A model generated the notes under the pieces. The model searched no databases and was not told the origin of the DNA. It was given only the letters and a program-made list of their open reading frames with translations. Positions 11,091-24,606 of a stretch of DNA of 30,078 nt are shown here, piece by piece (positions within the stretch are counted from its first letter, which is position 1; each line of letters begins with the position of its first letter). Source of the DNA: a virus (lineage: Duplodnaviria; Caudoviricetes); IMG/VR virus record IMGVR_UViG_3300020431_000022, positions 1 through 30,078 of that record. One strand, 5' to 3'. Both the position numbers and the translations under genes were made by a program.

Positions 11091-11163
11091 TGGGAGATGT
11101 GGGGATCGAACCCACCTTATCCGAATTATGAGCTCGGTGCATTCACCAGATTGCTAATCTCCC
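11091..11163 (-). tRNA. tRNA with CAT anticodon (elongator Met or Ile2)
   Basis: GGGAGAT/ATCTCCC acceptor stem, anticodon arm CCGAG-CTCATAA-TTCGG, T arm GTGGG-TTCGATC-CCCAC. G1-C72 is paired and the three consecutive G-C anticodon-stem pairs are absent, so it is not an initiator tRNA. No encoded CCA. Confidence 0.9.
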
Positions 11164-11167
11164 TAAA

Positions 11168-11239
11168 CTCCCCTTCCTGGGATCGAACCAGGGACCAAAC
11201 GATTAACAGTCGTTCGCTCTACCGCTGAGCTAAAGAGGA
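11168..11239 (-). tRNA. tRNA-Asn(GTT)
   Basis: TCCTCTT/AGGGGA acceptor stem, G73, anticodon arm AACGA-CTGTTAA-TCGTT, T arm CCTGG-TTCGATC-CCAGG. Confidence 0.95.
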
Positions 11240-11421
11240 TTGTCTTTTTTATGTGTCTCTAGAAGATATTCAACAGTGTTTGCTACATCATTCATAGCAT
11301 CACGAAGCATAGGTTGTTGACCAGAACTTTGTTCTACTTTAGTAACACCGTTCTTAAACTCTTCACAAAGAGTCCAACGCCATTGACCCATACTATTAGA
11401 ATACCAAAGATTAATCTTCAT
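11230..11421 (-). CDS. Small hypothetical cyanophage protein, 63 aa (MKINLWYSNSMGQWRWTL...)
   Basis: AGAGG RBS just upstream of the ATG. Its last 10 nt, including the TAG, overlap the 5' end of tRNA-Asn. Confidence 0.7.
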   Translation of the reverse strand: MKINLWYSNSMGQWRWTLCEEFKNGVTKVEQSSGQQPMLRDAMNDVANTVEYLLETHKKDNPL

Positions 11422-11436
11422 GGAACCTCTAGATTT

Positions 11437-11457
11437 AAAGGGGGCATTCCACCCCCC
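11437..11457 (-). terminator. GC-rich hairpin at the 3' end of the tmRNA coding piece (terminator or processing hairpin)
   Basis: GGGGGGTG-GAA-TGCCCCC-TTT on -; the U tract is short. Confidence 0.5.
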
Positions 11458-11501
11458 AGAACTACTTGGTTAACAAGGCTAGTTTAACCCCGATCCCCCA
11501 T

Positions 11502-11573
11502 TCAGGCAGTCGCGAGTTCGCGAGTGCGGGAGAATGCAACGATGTTATTCGCTGCGGTGTCAGATGTTTTTGC
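11502..11573 (-). other. tmRNA tag reading frame
   Basis: GCA AAA ACA TCT GAC ACC GCA GCG AAT AAC ATC GTT GCA TTC TCC CGC ACT CGC GAA CTC GCG ACT GCC TGA. The resume codon is either GCA at 11573 or GCG at 11552. Confidence 0.8.
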
Positions 11574-11648
11574 ATCTATGGTTTGCTTATCCAAGCAGGT
11601 TTCAGTCACATTCCGTGTACCCTGTCGAAACCATGGCACCCCCAGGAG

Positions 11649-11730
11649 TGGGCAGAGTTGGATTTGAACCAACGTAAGCATAGCTAACGGATTTACAGTC
11701 CGTCTCCTTTAACCACTCGGACACCTACCC
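11649..11730 (-). tRNA. tRNA-Tyr(GTA), located between the two tmRNA pieces
   Basis: GGGTAGG/TCTGCCC acceptor stem, A73, anticodon arm ACGGA-CTGTAAA-TCCGT, long variable arm, T arm GTTGG-TTCAAAT-CCAAC. Confidence 0.95.
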
Positions 11731-11732
11731 GA

Positions 11733-11799
11733 TGGAAGTGAGGGGAATCGAACCCCTGTCCAGAATGTCGATGATGTAACCTATTCCACAAAAGTGGAA
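11733..11799 (-). ncRNA. ssrA: tmRNA, acceptor piece of a two-piece permuted gene
   Basis: ...ATTCTG-GAC-AGGGG-TTCGATT-CCCCT-CACTTCC-A: T arm plus acceptor 3' strand, complementary to GGGGGTG at 11643 with G3-U70 and A73. The 5' hairpin is TTCCAC-TTTT-GTGGAA; the 5' end is approximate. Confidence 0.88.
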
Positions 11800-11871
11800 A
11801 GCCCACAGTAGGATTTGAACCAACGACCTACGCTTTACAAAAGCGTTGCTCTACCACTGAGCTATATGGGC
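11800..11871 (-). tRNA. tRNA-Thr(TGT)
   Basis: GCCCATA/TGTGGGC acceptor stem, anticodon arm ACGCT-TTTGTAA-AGCGT, T arm with one T-T mismatch. Confidence 0.93.
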
Positions 11872-11911: not shown

Positions 11912-11940
11912 AATATAGACTAGAAAAGGTTAGATGTCAA
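11912..11940 (-). promoter_or_regulatory. Sigma70-type (early) promoter TTGACA-N17-TATATT for the tRNA/tmRNA operon
   Basis: Minus strand TTGACA TCTAACCTTTTCTAGTC TATATT, ~40 nt upstream of tRNA-Thr. Confidence 0.8.
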
Positions 11941-13685: not shown

Positions 13686-15290
13686 TTAGATCCCTACTTC
13701 ACCCCAATCAAAATCTTCAAGAGTCTCTGCTTGGTTTTTTTGTTTCCGTCTCTTATCATTAACGAAAGCAATACCTTGCAACATTCCCCAAGCCGTAGTT
13801 TCTTCTTCTGTTCTCAACTCTCTAATAATTTTAGTTCCCGAAAGATATTTGTCAATCTTAGGAGTATTTTCAGCAATTTTAGCAGACATCTCACTTTCTC
13901 TACTTGCAATTGCACTGGTAAGATCACCGCAACCATTAAGACTTGGATTATTTGGACTAATAACAGTGGATGATATCGTAGATGATGGAACTGTAGAACC
14001 AGTACTGACCCTAAGTATTGTACCTTCTGGAACATATACGTCAGCGTTATATCCGTATGTGTATGGACTTTGTTGCGTTCCAGCTCCACCTCTAGTTACT
14101 CTTCTAAGTGTTGGCCAAGAAGACGCACCTACCCAATACTCAGCAAATCCTGCACCAACTGCGGGTTCGTCATCTCCGCGAACTTCATGCCATTCTTTTA
14201 TTTCTTTTGGATCTCCATTATTAATCAAATCGATCTTATGGCCTCTACCAATTCCCTTTCCTTCAGCAATTCCAATTTCTACTGGATCGATGGGGTTCTT
14301 AGTAGCTTCAAACTGAAGATCCTGATTAGTAGGTCCTCTAACAACAATAAAAGAAGTACGAGAAGCACCAACCGTAGTAATTGTATCAAAATACACGGCA
14401 GGGTAAGTATCTACAACGCCTATGGAAAATTCATTACTGGAAGTATCCCCCAAAGCAACATTGCTAACTACAGCAAAGTCAATACCAACAGTAGTTGTAA
14501 AATCACCACCGTTGATATTCAGATCCGCAGTTGATTCTCCAAAACTTTCAATAACGGTTCCAACAGGAAAGAACTCCGAATAGATAAAATCTCCCACACT
14601 GAATGATGTCATAAATCCTGTTGATCCATCGCTGTATATTTTATTAACCGCAGCAGTGCAAAATCCACTTATCGACACTCGTTCTTTGGGGTAAGCGGCT
14701 GTTCCCAATGCAACAACAGTTGGAAGATTACCTGTTTGAAAATAAACGGGATCTTCCAAATCATCAGTAAGAATATCACCAACTTTAATAATACCTCCAG
14801 TAAAATCATATCCATTACTATCAAATATAACAAGGACTGATGTTAAAGCATCGATACTAGCATCCCGAATCTCATCAATTACATTAGCACCGTACTCCAT
14901 ATTCTTAGGATACCTATAGTACTTGCAACCATAATAATTTATCTGCTGACGTTGAGATGGGTCCTTTACAACCTCCCAAGTTTGAGACTCAGTGGAATCA
15001 AGTCCAGGGCGCCCTGGGGTTGATTCTGTTGATTGTAGTTGCCAAATCAATGGACTTAAACAACCAGCTTCAATTCTTGCATCATATGCATCTCTAACTG
15101 CATTAATGGTACTATTAATCTCACTAACTAGAGGAACAGTCTTTTGATCCAAACCATCTATTAGTTCATCATACTCATCAGCGATGGCATCAGCAATGGC
15201 AAGTTGTTCACTCATTGCCTCCACTTGGTCTTTTGATTGCCTTCGTTGCTCTCGCAACCTTTTAGCCATTTCAGCAGGATTCGCTTTCAT
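13686..15290 (-). CDS. Putative virion structural protein (coiled-coil ends, beta-rich centre)
   Basis: 534 aa, TAATG-coupled to the gp5-downstream structural cluster. Confidence 0.7.
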   Translation of the reverse strand: MKANPAEMAKRLREQRRQSKDQVEAMSEQLAIADAIADEYDELIDGLDQKTVPLVSEINSTINAVRDAYDARIEAGCLSPLIWQLQSTESTPGRPGLDSTESQTWEVVKDPSQRQQINYYGCKYYRYPKNMEYGANVIDEIRDASIDALTSVLVIFDSNGYDFTGGIIKVGDILTDDLEDPVYFQTGNLPTVVALGTAAYPKERVSISGFCTAAVNKIYSDGSTGFMTSFSVGDFIYSEFFPVGTVIESFGESTADLNINGGDFTTTVGIDFAVVSNVALGDTSSNEFSIGVVDTYPAVYFDTITTVGASRTSFIVVRGPTNQDLQFEATKNPIDPVEIGIAEGKGIGRGHKIDLINNGDPKEIKEWHEVRGDDEPAVGAGFAEYWVGASSWPTLRRVTRGGAGTQQSPYTYGYNADVYVPEGTILRVSTGSTVPSSTISSTVISPNNPSLNGCGDLTSAIASRESEMSAKIAENTPKIDKYLSGTKIIRELRTEEETTAWGMLQGIAFVNDKRRKQKNQAETLEDFDWGEVGI

Positions 15291-16174
15291 TATCCATTTA
15301 CTCCTTTTCTATAATCATAGTTATATCCAACAATAGATCTCTGGGAATTATCGCCTGGATAATCTTCAATCTTCCCTTCATATTCAACATATAACTTTTC
15401 GAGATCTTTTCTTTCACCAAAAATTGTATAATAATAATTGAAGTGAATTCCCCCACCAATATTAATTACACCACCATTATAATCAACTGACTCTACGTAT
15501 AGATTTTGGTTTTCTCCAATAGGAGTTAAATTAACAGTGATAGAATCCTCATGTACTAGACCTTTCCAGTATTCTGGTATTTGAATTACATTAGATTCGG
15601 ATTTACCGCGATGATATACACCAACTTCTGGACCTTCAATGCAAGCATGAGCAAGCCTCCAACCTTTCTTGGTTGGATGATGCATATCAAATCCTTTACC
15701 AGGAGCAAGCATTGCAGCAGCAATCTTACCATCTAGCCATGCACAGTTAATAACACCAGCAACATTGAGTACTCCATTGACATTATCTGCACCATTTTGC
15801 ACCTTCACCGAATTACCAACTTTCAATGCATTGGCAATATCAACACCATTCTTAAGACTTAACGCATTCTTAATTGTAGTACCAAGTTTAGTTGTAAGAC
15901 CAGTAAAGGTACTAACTGCCGTAACATTGAAAACACCAATGATATTTGCAATCCCAATTACTTCTAATGACGCAGGAACTGATATCCCAAGTGGAGGACC
16001 AATCATTACTGTAGCTCGTGGAGCCCCAACAGTTCCATTTGCACCAAAATATGCTGGTCCATTACAAACTAATGTACCAGGAAATAATCTTGAAGAAGCG
16101 TCTAGGAAGGAAACATCTAATGCCCCGATGATAACCTTATCACCGAACATTCCTATCGAACCAGTAACTGCCAT
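15290..16174 (-). CDS. Baseplate/spike-associated structural protein with beta-helix-like repeats and a C-terminal chaperone-like domain
   Basis: Val/Gly/Asn repeats followed by FDMHHPTKKGWRLAHACIEGPEVGVYHRG...IPEYW, a C-terminal module common in phage fibre proteins. Confidence 0.65.
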   Translation of the reverse strand: MAVTGSIGMFGDKVIIGALDVSFLDASSRLFPGTLVCNGPAYFGANGTVGAPRATVMIGPPLGISVPASLEVIGIANIIGVFNVTAVSTFTGLTTKLGTTIKNALSLKNGVDIANALKVGNSVKVQNGADNVNGVLNVAGVINCAWLDGKIAAAMLAPGKGFDMHHPTKKGWRLAHACIEGPEVGVYHRGKSESNVIQIPEYWKGLVHEDSITVNLTPIGENQNLYVESVDYNGGVINIGGGIHFNYYYTIFGERKDLEKLYVEYEGKIEDYPGDNSQRSIVGYNYDYRKGVNG

Positions 16175-16743
16175 TAGAAGAAGTCCTTAAATTTATCTAG
16201 AAACTTGAGGACACCTCCCAAGAAACTACCCTGGAAAATATCTGTCATAGTTCCACCTTCATTTGAAACTGATCCTGTATTTTCAACAAAAGTTGCCCCT
16301 AATGATAAGTTGTTACTTCCAAGGATATTTACATTAGTTCCTTTGATATGACAAACAGCACCTTTAATATAGACATGTTTACCCGAGACCAAAGTAATTT
16401 CTCCAGAACCATCTTCAGCAGATAATCGAATATTTCTACCCTTAAGAATAATATCACCATCTTGAGCATCAATCAAAATATGACCAGAACCAGCTGTTAG
16501 GATCTTAGCATAATCATCTTCTGTTGTTGTTTTATACCCACATAGTTCATATGAGGTTCCATTACATATGGATTTATAATATCCATCTTTATAATATGTA
16601 AATCCTTGAGATTCATCGGTAATCATGGAAAGGTCACTAGTCTTTCCCTTCAACTCACCCGAATCAATCAATATCCCAGATTCGACTCGGAATCCAGGAT
16701 AATTTCTAAAATATTCTTTAGAGTTTGGTTGTTGTGTGCTCAT
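16174..16743 (-). CDS. gp5 C-terminal-like beta-helix spike protein
   Basis: IxA..GDIILKGRNIRLSA-type repeats directly downstream of gp5; TAATG coupling. Confidence 0.6.
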   Translation of the reverse strand: MSTQQPNSKEYFRNYPGFRVESGILIDSGELKGKTSDLSMITDESQGFTYYKDGYYKSICNGTSYELCGYKTTTEDDYAKILTAGSGHILIDAQDGDIILKGRNIRLSAEDGSGEITLVSGKHVYIKGAVCHIKGTNVNILGSNNLSLGATFVENTGSVSNEGGTMTDIFQGSFLGGVLKFLDKFKDFF

Positions 16744-21065: not shown

Positions 21066-22936
21066 GATCCTGATAACTGTGTGAGTAAGATTGACTGTGA
21101 GATTGTAACTATGTCCATACTATTAGTAACATTATCACCTCCTTTAGATCCACCACTAGACATGAAATTTGGCGTCGATTTATGATTTTGTGGTAACTGA
21201 TTGCTAGTTATAATAGTATTATTTACTCTATTCGGTCTATTATAAGATGGATACTGATTTACTGGAGGTTCTTGACGTTTAGTTGGAGTTATTATCGATG
21301 GAGGAAGTTCAGCACTATTGGATTGAGGGGGATTTGCAGTCGAAGATGCATCAGGGATAGTGGAGGCCTTTTGTGGATCTACTTTAGACTGTTCGTCCAG
21401 TTTATCTTCATATGATACTAATTTATTTTCAAATTCTTCTAAACTAATACGTTTACCATTTACATCAAAATACTTATCTTCTCTAGTTCCTATAAGATTT
21501 CTACCCAAAACATATGTACCAACTTCAGGAATACGTACTTTTTCATCAACTCTAGAAATATCATGAGATGATTGCAGTTCTTCAAGTTTTTTAGTTAATA
21601 CTGCCAAGTTATCTTTTTTGTCCTTGGATTCTTTTTGTGTCGGTATTACTTTTGTTTGTGGATCAGAAGAAGATTGGGGTGCTACTGGTGGAACTGTTGG
21701 CTCAGGATTTGACGGTTGAATGGATGTTGCATTATTTACTTCTGCAAATGGGATTTTATGTAACCCACCTAAGAATTTACTAGACTGAGAAGCACTGTAT
21801 CTTTCATAAGTTCCTTGTTTATATAATTCCAGATGCAAGTGTGTATCGTTATATTGAGTTTCTTCTCCGCCTAGAGGAACGAGAGTACCAATAATTTGAC
21901 CTCTAGCAATTTTATCTCCAGGTTGCACACTTGGATTCATATGCAAGTATCTTGCATCAACATTGAGGTCTGGATGATTAATCATTACACCAGCAAGATA
22001 TGCATCCTTACTACCATTATATCTCTCATCAATAACTACACCATCCGACATTGCAATAATTGGAGTTCTGGGATTTTTCCTATATGGAGTAGTTTCTGCT
22101 ATATCAGTTCCATGGTGCATTCTACCATTTCGCATCCCAACGGGAGAAGAAACATAATTTCCACCTGGGAATGGGTGTAATCCACCAGATCCATAGTTGG
22201 AAGTATTAATTTTACGTGATACTGGTCTCGCAATTGAAGTTGTAGGTTGGGATTGTGTTGTTTGGCTTGCTGATACTGGAATACCTTGAGTAAAAATACC
22301 TGCATTAGCAAGAGCTCCAAACAGTGTAACACCCGAAGCAAATTTGCTTATATTTAATTTTTTAGTATTTCCTTCTGTCCACTCACCAGGACCAAAATCA
22401 TCTGGAGTCCTTGGCGTGAGATTTTTACCATATGTTCTAGTTTGACCCGTCTCTAAAAAATAAATTTGTTCATCTACTTCTTGTGCAACTCCAGTGATCC
22501 AATCCCACCAGTTTAAATTCTTTTTTTGTTCATATAAGGCTCTAAGTTTCTCTTCTCTAGTTCCAGGGGCCTTTGCAGTTTTCCTTTCATTAGTATTAAT
22601 TAATCCAGGAACAAGAGCAGGTAACCATGCCCCTGCGGTGCCAAGAATAACTGCAATAGATGCACCTTGCAGCATACGACCCAACAATGCATTAGTTGCC
22701 ATACCAAATGGAGACGGCAAACTTAACGCAAATCCGCCATTACTATTCTTACCTATAACAGACAAATCAATTGTCTTAAGGTATTTCATTTTATTTTTGG
22801 AAGGAAACTTAAAGTTCCTCAGTTTACTATCGTTACGTCTTATAAACTTACTAAACCGTACAATTGCTTTTTCAGTATCCGCAACAGGACCCCTTACACC
22901 TTCCGCTACTGCTCTAATGTTAATTGGTTTAGCCAT
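21062..22936 (-). CDS. Tail-associated protein with an M23 peptidase domain
   Basis: SSPVGMRNGRMHHGTDI (HxxxD), YLHM, V.PGDKIARGQIIG, HLHLE (HxH). Confidence 0.82.
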   Translation of the reverse strand: MAKPINIRAVAEGVRGPVADTEKAIVRFSKFIRRNDSKLRNFKFPSKNKMKYLKTIDLSVIGKNSNGGFALSLPSPFGMATNALLGRMLQGASIAVILGTAGAWLPALVPGLINTNERKTAKAPGTREEKLRALYEQKKNLNWWDWITGVAQEVDEQIYFLETGQTRTYGKNLTPRTPDDFGPGEWTEGNTKKLNISKFASGVTLFGALANAGIFTQGIPVSASQTTQSQPTTSIARPVSRKINTSNYGSGGLHPFPGGNYVSSPVGMRNGRMHHGTDIAETTPYRKNPRTPIIAMSDGVVIDERYNGSKDAYLAGVMINHPDLNVDARYLHMNPSVQPGDKIARGQIIGTLVPLGGEETQYNDTHLHLELYKQGTYERYSASQSSKFLGGLHKIPFAEVNNATSIQPSNPEPTVPPVAPQSSSDPQTKVIPTQKESKDKKDNLAVLTKKLEELQSSHDISRVDEKVRIPEVGTYVLGRNLIGTREDKYFDVNGKRISLEEFENKLVSYEDKLDEQSKVDPQKASTIPDASSTANPPQSNSAELPPSIITPTKRQEPPVNQYPSYNRPNRVNNTIITSNQLPQNHKSTPNFMSSGGSKGGDNVTNSMDIVTISQSILLTQLSGS

Positions 22937-24606
22937 TATCCGTCAACGATGTTATATACGATTCTTGAATACATGGTATGAATATTTCCCATATCAAATG
23001 GTGCGAGGAAAGGAACTTTACCTCCTTCAGAATCACTCATAACATGATTCTGTTGTTCCTGTCCCTGTTGGGTATTGCCCATATTTATTGGAATAATATT
23101 AGTTTGAACATCATCTTCAGTAATAATTTGTTCTGGAGACTGAGCAATAGTTCTAGAAGCTTCCGATCTCAATTCTGATCCGTCTATTGATGGATCCAAT
23201 CCAGTTGCACTCCCGTAATTACTATATGCTGCGTTATACGTAGACATGAAATTTGCAGTATTTACGTTTGGCTGACTTCCTCCAGGTAAGGATGGCCATC
23301 CCATATCTACAGATAGTTTTGGAACAACATCTGATATTAGGTTACCATCCCTAATAGACTGAATCATTCCCTGTTCACCACCTTTTCCACCTTGGATTCC
23401 ATACACTTTGGTCATGTATGATCTCATCATTCTGTCTTGATTTGACTTGGTAAATTTATCCTTATTCAGATCAAGTCCAGCGTCTATTGCAGTTTGTCTA
23501 TGGAAATCTGGGTGGAATTGATATGCACCAATTGCACCTGTTGTAGTATCTCCCTTTCCTTGCATACTCTCACCAGCTTGGAAAGCTTGTTCAATAGTCA
23601 GTCCTTCAAGATTGACACCATGATCAGTCTGACCTTGAATAGCATTTACATCACCTTCTCCAGCAGAAACTGCATCCATTAAAGCGAGCATTTCTGGCGC
23701 AGCATTTGGAAGAGAAATACCACCACCAGAAGCAGTTCCCATAGGGGTACTCGTAGGTTGAGCACTGGATTCTGATTTTAAGTCGATTCCTCCAGAACCG
23801 TTAGAGTCGTTGTCATCTTGTGGAGTGATCGCACTTCTAATTCCATCCAGAATAGACGAAAATTCCTCAACAGTGGAGTTGAATAACGCAACATCCATAT
23901 CATTAGGCATTCCAGCCAATGACTGTTGTTGTTGAACTCCTCCAACAGGAGGAGGGGCTCCACTAATTTGTCCACCTTGTGGGGCAGGACCTTCTTTCTC
24001 TGCTTTTTGCATCTGATCATACGTGATCTTTGCAGCAAAAGCAGCAGTAACTGCAAGAGCAAGAGTCTTTAATCCACCCAATCCCATCCCAGGAGATTTT
24101 GCGGAACCTAAATTCTTAGCAGCACTACCTAGTTGAGTAATTAACTTTAATATAATATCTCTGGATTGGAATATAAAGTCAAATGTCCTCTGTAGAGGTT
24201 GCATTAAACTCATCAAATTCTGTTGGAATCTTTGGAGTTCGTCTAGTCCACCCCTAAAGATTCGGGCCAACATTTCGTTTGGATCAAACGAATTTACCTG
24301 TCTTTCTACTCTTTCTGAGATTGTAGGAATAAGTCTATTAACTTTATTTTCTACAATCTGATTAATTTTGGTTACATTGATTCCATCAGATTCTTGTTGT
24401 GGATCTTGAGGCTGCAAAAGACCTTGCGCTACACCTACAAGTGGAGATTTAGCAGGTTGTACTCTCGAAGATCCCGCAACTCCTGATTTTCCTCTACCAA
24501 AGAAATCTGTAGAAGCACTAGTATTTTGTCTACCACCACGAAAAAATGCACCAGGGTTAAACCTGGACATTCTTGGCATTATTCGTGGTGTAATAGGACT
24601 ACGCAT
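22936..24606 (-). CDS. Tail-associated (tape-measure-region) protein with a lambda-lysozyme-like muramidase domain
   Basis: ALMDAVSAGEG...GAIGAYQF...FTKSNQDRM...WPSLPG motifs after a helical N-terminal half. Confidence 0.72.
   Translation of the reverse strand: MRSPITPRIMPRMSRFNPGAFFRGGRQNTSASTDFFGRGKSGVAGSSRVQPAKSPLVGVAQGLLQPQDPQQESDGINVTKINQIVENKVNRLIPTISERVERQVNSFDPNEMLARIFRGGLDELQRFQQNLMSLMQPLQRTFDFIFQSRDIILKLITQLGSAAKNLGSAKSPGMGLGGLKTLALAVTAAFAAKITYDQMQKAEKEGPAPQGGQISGAPPPVGGVQQQQSLAGMPNDMDVALFNSTVEEFSSILDGIRSAITPQDDNDSNGSGGIDLKSESSAQPTSTPMGTASGGGISLPNAAPEMLALMDAVSAGEGDVNAIQGQTDHGVNLEGLTIEQAFQAGESMQGKGDTTTGAIGAYQFHPDFHRQTAIDAGLDLNKDKFTKSNQDRMMRSYMTKVYGIQGGKGGEQGMIQSIRDGNLISDVVPKLSVDMGWPSLPGGSQPNVNTANFMSTYNAAYSNYGSATGLDPSIDGSELRSEASRTIAQSPEQIITEDDVQTNIIPINMGNTQQGQEQQNHVMSDSEGGKVPFLAPFDMGNIHTMYSRIVYNIVDG

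Follow-up and report, generated by a model that had tools for sequence, protein, structure and literature searches.

Two-piece tmRNAs have been listed for phages, including the cyanophages S-SSM6a, AG-345-P14, and S-CBWM1 (Buchholz et al. 2022, PMC9004378, Table S1), in a paper whose main text does not use the word 'intervening'. For one permuted tmRNA, GCA-2688965__sp002688965.2, an intact tRNA-Ala located within the intervening sequence has been described as 'a unique feature' (Nawrocki, Petrov, Williams 2025, PMC11915505); it is represented by one record, a nominally archaeal MAG that its authors regard as possibly misbinned, and the passages describing it present neither a mechanism nor a survey. 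Here, we analyzed a 30,078-nt stretch of viral DNA (the window; its IMG/VR source record, IMGVR_UViG_3300020431_000022, consists of this 30-kb contig alone), in which a permuted tmRNA encloses a complete tRNA-Tyr gene. The initial annotation of the window knew of no such arrangement, a claim of novelty that has to be withdrawn in view of the tRNA-Ala record as described (PMC11915505). We consider it probable that the locus encodes an intact cyanophage permuted tmRNA whose spacer holds an optional complete tRNA-Tyr, one that would be released by ordinary host processing and likely moves by recombination.

A PHROGs scan of 26 window proteins, with matches to families for the baseplate, tail tube, head closure, tail fibre, and 2OG-Fe(II) oxygenase, and BLAST matches in which Synechococcus phage Sf-FS3 ranks first as the nearest cultured relative found, indicate that the window is a contig of a T4-like cyanophage (cyanomyovirus). 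No smpB-like protein was matched among the same 26 proteins. ORFs at 13686-15290 (534 aa), 16174-16743 (189 aa), 22936-24606 (556 aa), and 376-1470 (364 aa) have no PHROGs family at E 1e-5.

Anatomy and detection of the nested locus

Read directly from the minus strand, the acceptor piece is followed by 2 nt, the tRNA-Tyr, 5 nt, and the coding piece (Table 1), with tRNA-Tyr(GTA) taking up 82 of the 89 intervening nt. The initial annotation had placed a permuted two-piece tmRNA and an intact nested tRNA here, and the sequence, ARAGORN, and Rfam confirm each of its coordinates. The acceptor piece comprises a 5' hairpin, P2 strands, the T arm, the acceptor 3' strand, and the discriminator A 11733; the coding piece comprises the acceptor 5' strand from G 11643, P2 strands, the tag frame, and 3' hairpins. 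CCA is encoded neither in the acceptor piece nor in the nested tRNA. The three inter-piece helices that had been named pair throughout (acceptor 7/7 with G3-U70, P2a 6/6, and the outer helix 6/6). The tag frame, running from 11573 to 11502, is open, with a resume context and the hydrophobic end LATA*, and has 7 residues before the ANNIV core, where shorter cyano-type tags begin. In the window and its relatives, cyanophage tags reach up to 32 residues; relative to the short ANNIV-type tags, they are extended at the N terminus and have longer ends.

Table 1. Features of the tmRNA/tRNA-Tyr locus and its flanks, in window coordinates.
Feature	Position	Strand	Basis or remark
Sigma-70-type promoter-like site, TTGACA-17-TATATT	11912..11940	-	11/12 matches
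tRNA-Thr(TGT)	11800..11871	-	directly upstream of acceptor piece; ARAGORN
tmRNA acceptor piece	11733..11799	-	putative 5' boundary; sequence, Rfam, folding
5' hairpin of acceptor piece	11784..11799	-	matches first hairpin of RF01851
Outer inter-piece helix strand	11778..11783	-	pairs with 11601-11596; mean pair probability 0.96
P2a strand	11761..11766	-	pairs with 11624-11619; pair variation across relatives
2-nt spacer, tmRNA A73 to tRNA-Tyr G1	11731..11732	-	sequence
Nested tRNA-Tyr(GTA), 82 nt	11649..11730	-	ARAGORN, RF00005
5-nt spacer (tRNA-Tyr trailer and leader of coding piece)	11644..11648	-	sequence
tmRNA coding piece	11437..11643	-	starts G 11643; 3' end predicted; ARAGORN, Rfam
Tag reading frame, AKTSDTAANNIVAFSRTRELATA*	11502..11573	-	ARAGORN; resume context aligned in RF04321
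Terminal GC hairpin, then short U run	11439..11457	-	Rfam, folding
63-aa ORF, phrog_2818 (function not assigned)	11230..11421	-	between tmRNA and tRNA-Asn
Free-standing tRNA-Asn(GTT)	11168..11239	-	ARAGORN, Rfam
Free-standing tRNA, anticodon CAT (Met or Ile2)	11091..11163	-	ARAGORN, Rfam

By sequence criteria, the window gene is a bona fide cyano-type two-piece tmRNA: its tRNA-like domain has G3-U70, A73, and a T arm, and the acceptor piece lies upstream of the coding piece with an intervening segment between them. The model for cyano_tmRNA, RF01851, scores 121.7 bits (gathering 70, E 8.5e-33) with 88 nt of the spacer region skipped, RF04321 reaches 78.2 bits (gathering 47), and ARAGORN calls a permuted tmRNA at 11411-11822 with the tag AKTSDTAANNIVAFSRTRELATA* and tRNA-Tyr(GTA) inside. 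The expectation that such an arrangement could defeat standard tmRNA finders was thus not borne out, as ARAGORN and both Rfam permuted-tmRNA models found the gene. On its own, the insert scores 57.6 bits against RF00005 (gathering 29), and in a whole-window Rfam scan the nested tRNA is hidden by clan competition; annotation pipelines that filter overlaps can thus lose either the tmRNA or the tRNA. Five GenBank records examined (Sf-FS3, S-CAM1, S-CAM3, AG-345-P14, and S-SSM7; L006-L010, respectively) carry no annotation for the tmRNA. In several of these, short 'hypothetical protein' calls overlie the tmRNA gene.

The insert has the features of a bacterial tRNA-Tyr(GUA), i.e., a cloverleaf above threshold, the GUA anticodon, and G1-C72, A73, and a long variable arm, which we take to be tRNA-Tyr identity elements. 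It is 87-88% identical to the tRNA in four of the five picocyanobacterial genomes searched. A group I intron or an island integrated into ssrA was considered and rejected: the insert sits after A73 and is a plain tRNA, no intron family matched, and no integrase was found in the 26 proteins scanned.

A scan for promoter-like sites found four against 2.0 expected in shuffles; the one at 11940-11912, which is kept in L281, L229, and L286, is likely the start of a Thr-tmRNA-Tyr transcript. For the terminal hairpin and U run of the coding piece, the terminator scan made no call, and a terminator-like match at 11806-11794 was dismissed as chance (1 found, 0.9 expected). Further downstream, the stop codon of the phrog_2818 ORF falls within the first 10 nt of tRNA-Asn, an overlap also present in Sf-FS3. 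The CAT-anticodon tRNA is tRNA-Met according to ARAGORN and may be tRNA-Ile2, as Sf-FS3 annotates a CAT tRNA.

Recurrence, empty alleles, and conservation

Systematic pattern scans of IMG/VR, covering spacers of 2-30, 72-102, and 103-133 nt, returned 149 loci, not dereplicated. Among the 66 with a cyano-type tag, a tRNA is nested in 11 (5 Tyr, 6 Asn); the nesting that the initial annotation had suggested searching for in viromes does recur. ARAGORN found no nested tRNA in the 75 loci with other tags, long spacers included; one of the eight truncated loci has one. A set of 73 unique non-host cyano-type genes, which includes metagenome contigs (long spacers only) and is enriched for nested cases by the long-spacer scans, holds nested Tyr in 9, Asn in 10, Asp in 1, and Arg(CCT) in 1, the Asp- and Arg(CCT)-nested genes coming from metagenome contigs. 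The nested T-loop pattern occurs at 23 places in IMG/VR and at none in GTDB genomes, in a scan that also missed the published tRNA-Ala case. The spacers around the nested tRNA measure 2-4 and 3-5 nt in 20 of the 21 nested genes (one row was mis-parsed). Host two-piece tmRNA spacers retrieved within a scan range of only 2-32 nt span 5-30 nt with a mode of 6, and the 95 host genes, picked for short spacers, are no control for nesting.

GUN anticodons (Tyr, Asn, Asp) are found in 20 of the 21 nested tRNAs (L134, L204, L214, and L342 were noted), an observation made post hoc on few lineages. Separately, phage permuted tmRNAs with non-cyano tags (L163/L353, L069/L343, L354, L338, L347, L351) have spacers closed by a long stem, and with relaxed ARAGORN some spacers of this group give T-loop hairpins or distorted tRNA-like folds. 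In the cyano-type genes L197, L216, L217, L218, and L251, which cluster with those of hosts, the spacers are structured and 98-99 nt long but contain no tRNA.

The filled alleles all come from metagenomic contigs, and coverage of the nested stretch reaches 80% in no record of a cultured phage, as would be expected if the locus were an assembly chimera between tRNA-like repeats. We regard this as exceedingly improbable, because the same junctions appear in many separate contigs with allelic variation and a 151-nt contig (X7), identical to the window over 11651-11765, matches it exactly across the acceptor-Tyr junction. This contig stems from RNA data, which consist of assembled contigs only, with 4 of 22 runs compared and at most 0.13 of the sampled words present in any run. 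The junction between acceptor piece and tRNA-Tyr is bridged by contigs in two of the four RNA libraries, and a contig of a relative spans 11547-11765 (X3); the nested allele is present in these libraries, as precursor or as DNA. A single 151-nt contig (X1), which may represent an empty allele, ends 2 nt past the predicted 5' end at G 11643. Splicing was rejected for joints that skip 84-88 nt (X9); empty alleles explain them best, and in one of them different letters stand at the joint.

Empty sister alleles exist. At the IMG/VR locus L043/L281, the tmRNA scaffold is 98.1% identical to that of the window with a spacer of 6 nt, the gene order Thr-tmRNA-ORF-Asn-CAT is the window's, and there is no tRNA-Tyr within 1.5 kb; the homologous tmRNAs of Sf-FS3, S-CAM1, S-CAM3, S-SSM7, and AG-345-P14 are also empty, with 5-nt spacers. 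By comparison of these alleles, the nested tRNA-Tyr is optional, and any need of the tmRNA for it is contradicted by the near-isogenic empty allele. That allele also weighs against a selected coupling device, in which the nested tRNA would improve or time tmRNA maturation, fix a 1:1 output, or shield an RNA, so that filled alleles would differ functionally from empty ones. The recurrence of four tRNA types, with tight spacers in all but one of the nested genes, and the absence of the pattern from GTDB genomes agree with such a device, and selection could explain the spread across lineages described below. However, 55 of the 66 IMG/VR cyano-type loci have no tRNA, other phages have these tRNA types as free-standing genes next to the tmRNA, and tight spacers are normal in cyanophage tRNA clusters, where 1-6 nt also part free tRNAs; we hold a coupling device to be very unlikely.

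Pairing in the tmRNA is intact in the filled alleles. Across their 10 distinct motif sets, acceptor pairs are kept in 70/70 cases, T-stem pairs in 50/50, and P2a pairs in 56/60, compared with 161/161, 115/115, and 135/138 across the 23 distinct motif sets of empty alleles. The pair variation that the initial annotation had proposed looking for is present: several pair types occur per position, and pairing in filled alleles resembles that in empty phage alleles and hosts. All 10 filled motif sets have G3-U70, and the tag frame is open wherever the locus is long enough. The nested Tyr alleles show paired anticodon-stem changes (L002) and acceptor changes from G-U to G-C or A-U (L192, L185, L001). 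On these patterns, both the tmRNA and the nested tRNA look maintained.

If the insertion inactivated the tmRNA, leaving it misfolded or a decoy with the tRNA alone, or neither RNA, at work, mispaired acceptors would be expected, and these are what nearest-neighbor folding favors. On the precursor, ViennaRNA prefers mispaired acceptor strands (mean pair probability of the acceptors 0.07-0.08), places the double cloverleaf 3.1 kcal/mol above the minimum, a gap that grows to 9.6 kcal/mol when canonical P2a is imposed, and prefers another register for P2a in the window allele; the folding z of the whole region is -1.18. Thermodynamic support for the nested fold was not obtained from ViennaRNA energies, pair probabilities, or z. 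Because nearest-neighbor models ignore tertiary tRNA contacts, we count the unfavorable modeled fold as a mild caution. Inactivation itself is highly improbable, given the complete acceptor and T-stem pairing, the invariant G3-U70, and the open tag frames of filled alleles.

History of the tRNA-Tyr cassette

The scaffold tree (tmRNA minus spacer, 81 rows, 295 columns) included 10 of the 95 host genes, drawn at random; rows with <230 nt downstream were dropped, and its bootstraps had not settled. On this tree, 7 changes are required to account for the 9 Tyr-filled rows, well-supported branches making 4 of these unavoidable, and the Tyr label is equally clustered in 18 of 500 shuffles. A single clade of Tyr-filled rows is rejected (p-AU 2e-49). 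The histories of tRNA and tmRNA are discordant: five relatives carry a tRNA 98.8% identical to the window's in scaffolds that are 75-80% alike, and in L185 the scaffold is 96.6% and the tRNA 90.4% identical. One scaffold clade holds both Tyr and Asp in the slot. In the tRNA-Tyr tree, 1 of 15 branches is well supported.

One T-arm/acceptor haplotype is found in 8 of 9 Tyr-filled versus 8 of 48 empty genes (rows not independent). In L192 and L227, this haplotype replaces that of the nearest empty sister (L009 and L081, respectively) and the flanks stay native, a swap that fits the exchange of a short tract via the conserved tRNA-like flanks. Because near-identical tRNA-Tyr genes sit in tmRNAs only 75-80% alike and one T-arm haplotype travels along, the cassette likely spreads between phage lineages by recombination.

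Losses of the nested tRNA also seem to occur, in that empty sisters have scar-like spacers, of 6 nt beside Tyr-filled alleles and of 8-9 nt starting like the Asn-filled ones. Their resemblance to deletion scars would suit an ancestral nesting with one tRNA-Tyr entry, many deletions, and no lateral exchange, which we nevertheless think quite unlikely: the identities of tRNA and scaffold are discordant both ways, the flank haplotype travels with the tRNA, and Tyr and Asp share the slot within one scaffold clade.

Processing, benefit, and relation to known systems

Under the preferred reading of an intact tmRNA with an optional, mobile tRNA, a single transcript from the promoter at 11940 would carry tRNA-Thr, the acceptor piece, tRNA-Tyr, and the coding piece. 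Cleavage by host RNase P is predicted at G 11643 and at G 11730. Either cut would give one mature 5' end and leave a 5- or 2-nt trailer on the neighbor, and the trailers would be trimmed, followed by CCA addition; the 5' end of the acceptor piece would arise from tRNA-Thr processing, whereas S-CAM-type tmRNA genes are immediately preceded by a promoter-like sequence. The predicted products are an acceptor piece of ~55-70 nt, a coding piece of ~205 nt with which it pairs, and an 85-nt tRNA-Tyr, and the paired two-piece tmRNA would be alanylated and use host SmpB. According to a review, RNase P acts on tmRNA and cleaves a Synechocystis Tyr-Thr dimer at the 5' end of each tRNA (PMC6202907). Processing of the nested precursor is probably ordinary. 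In this precursor, the tRNA would replace the short loop closing the tmRNA acceptor stem; because tRNA ends lie side by side, the spacer may be a tolerant slot over which the acceptor stem still closes, and two conserved parts of the tmRNA, its T arm and its 5' strand, could serve as homology arms for exchange. With the tmRNA stem closed, tRNA-Tyr is left with an unpaired leader of only 3 nt, and the cuts may therefore have to follow a set order.

The initial annotation had proposed that tRNA excision and tmRNA maturation form one coupled event. Part of this stands, judged from the anatomy: in the filled allele, the acceptor 3' end would require removal of the tRNA, the acceptor piece could not be charged before, and maturation would therefore be physically linked. 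The link is not essential, since the empty alleles show that it would be dispensable. The benefit is likely the general one of phage tRNAs, i.e., topping up depleted or cleaved host tRNA, rather than a need of the tmRNA. In E. coli, a phage tRNA-Tyr is described as able to compensate for the cleavage of tRNA by retron-Eco7 (PMC11555353). A codon-use benefit was rejected, because with 272 TAT and 76 TAC codons for Tyr in 19 window ORFs and hosts that already carry the same GUA tRNA, no new decoding is gained. A bolder extension, in which the spacer would be a selected, swappable tRNA cassette site with tRNA-like flanks as shared recombination arms for distant phages (e.g., against host tRNA-cleaving defense) and tRNA release would gate or time tmRNA maturation, is one we entertain tentatively and find doubtful. 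The near-isogenic filled and empty alleles offer a clean test of RNase P on a closed-loop tRNA and of the reasons for which tRNAs and tmRNA are kept in phage genomes.

The locus resembles polycistronic tRNA precursors, such as the Synechocystis tRNA-Tyr/tRNA-Thr dimer as reviewed (PMC6202907), in that successive RNase P cuts at 5' ends would part the units. Unlike in tRNA dimers, the units flanking the tRNA in the window pair together, enclosing the tRNA and its 3-nt unpaired leader in a loop. With marine picocyanobacterial two-piece tmRNA (RF01851, RF04321) it shares the permuted order, the tRNA-like domain, inter-piece helices, terminal hairpins, an ANNIV-type core, and the lack of an encoded CCA, but its spacer has 89 nt with a tRNA, its tag is longer, and its acceptor piece follows tRNA-Thr. 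Like the phage tmRNAs listed by Buchholz et al. 2022, it is a phage-borne permuted ssrA, and the S-SSM7-type and AG-345-P14 genes are homologous to it; the cultured and single-cell phage relatives aligned differ in having 5-nt spacers.

No report of recurrent tRNA nesting in phage tmRNAs was found in the literature searched (titles and passages, with subscription papers mostly outside scope). The nested architecture has one published precedent; that it recurs in cyanophages, in several variants and with likely lateral exchange, does not appear to have been described. Compared by description only, the tRNA-Ala record (PMC11915505) has the same architecture, a whole tRNA gene in the spacer of a permuted tmRNA, whereas the window case is phage-borne, holds tRNA-Tyr, and recurs with Asn, Asp, and Arg. 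A feature called unique among 97,179 tmRNA genes in 2025 (PMC11915505) is here a recurring, polymorphic cyanophage trait, with four tRNA types overall.
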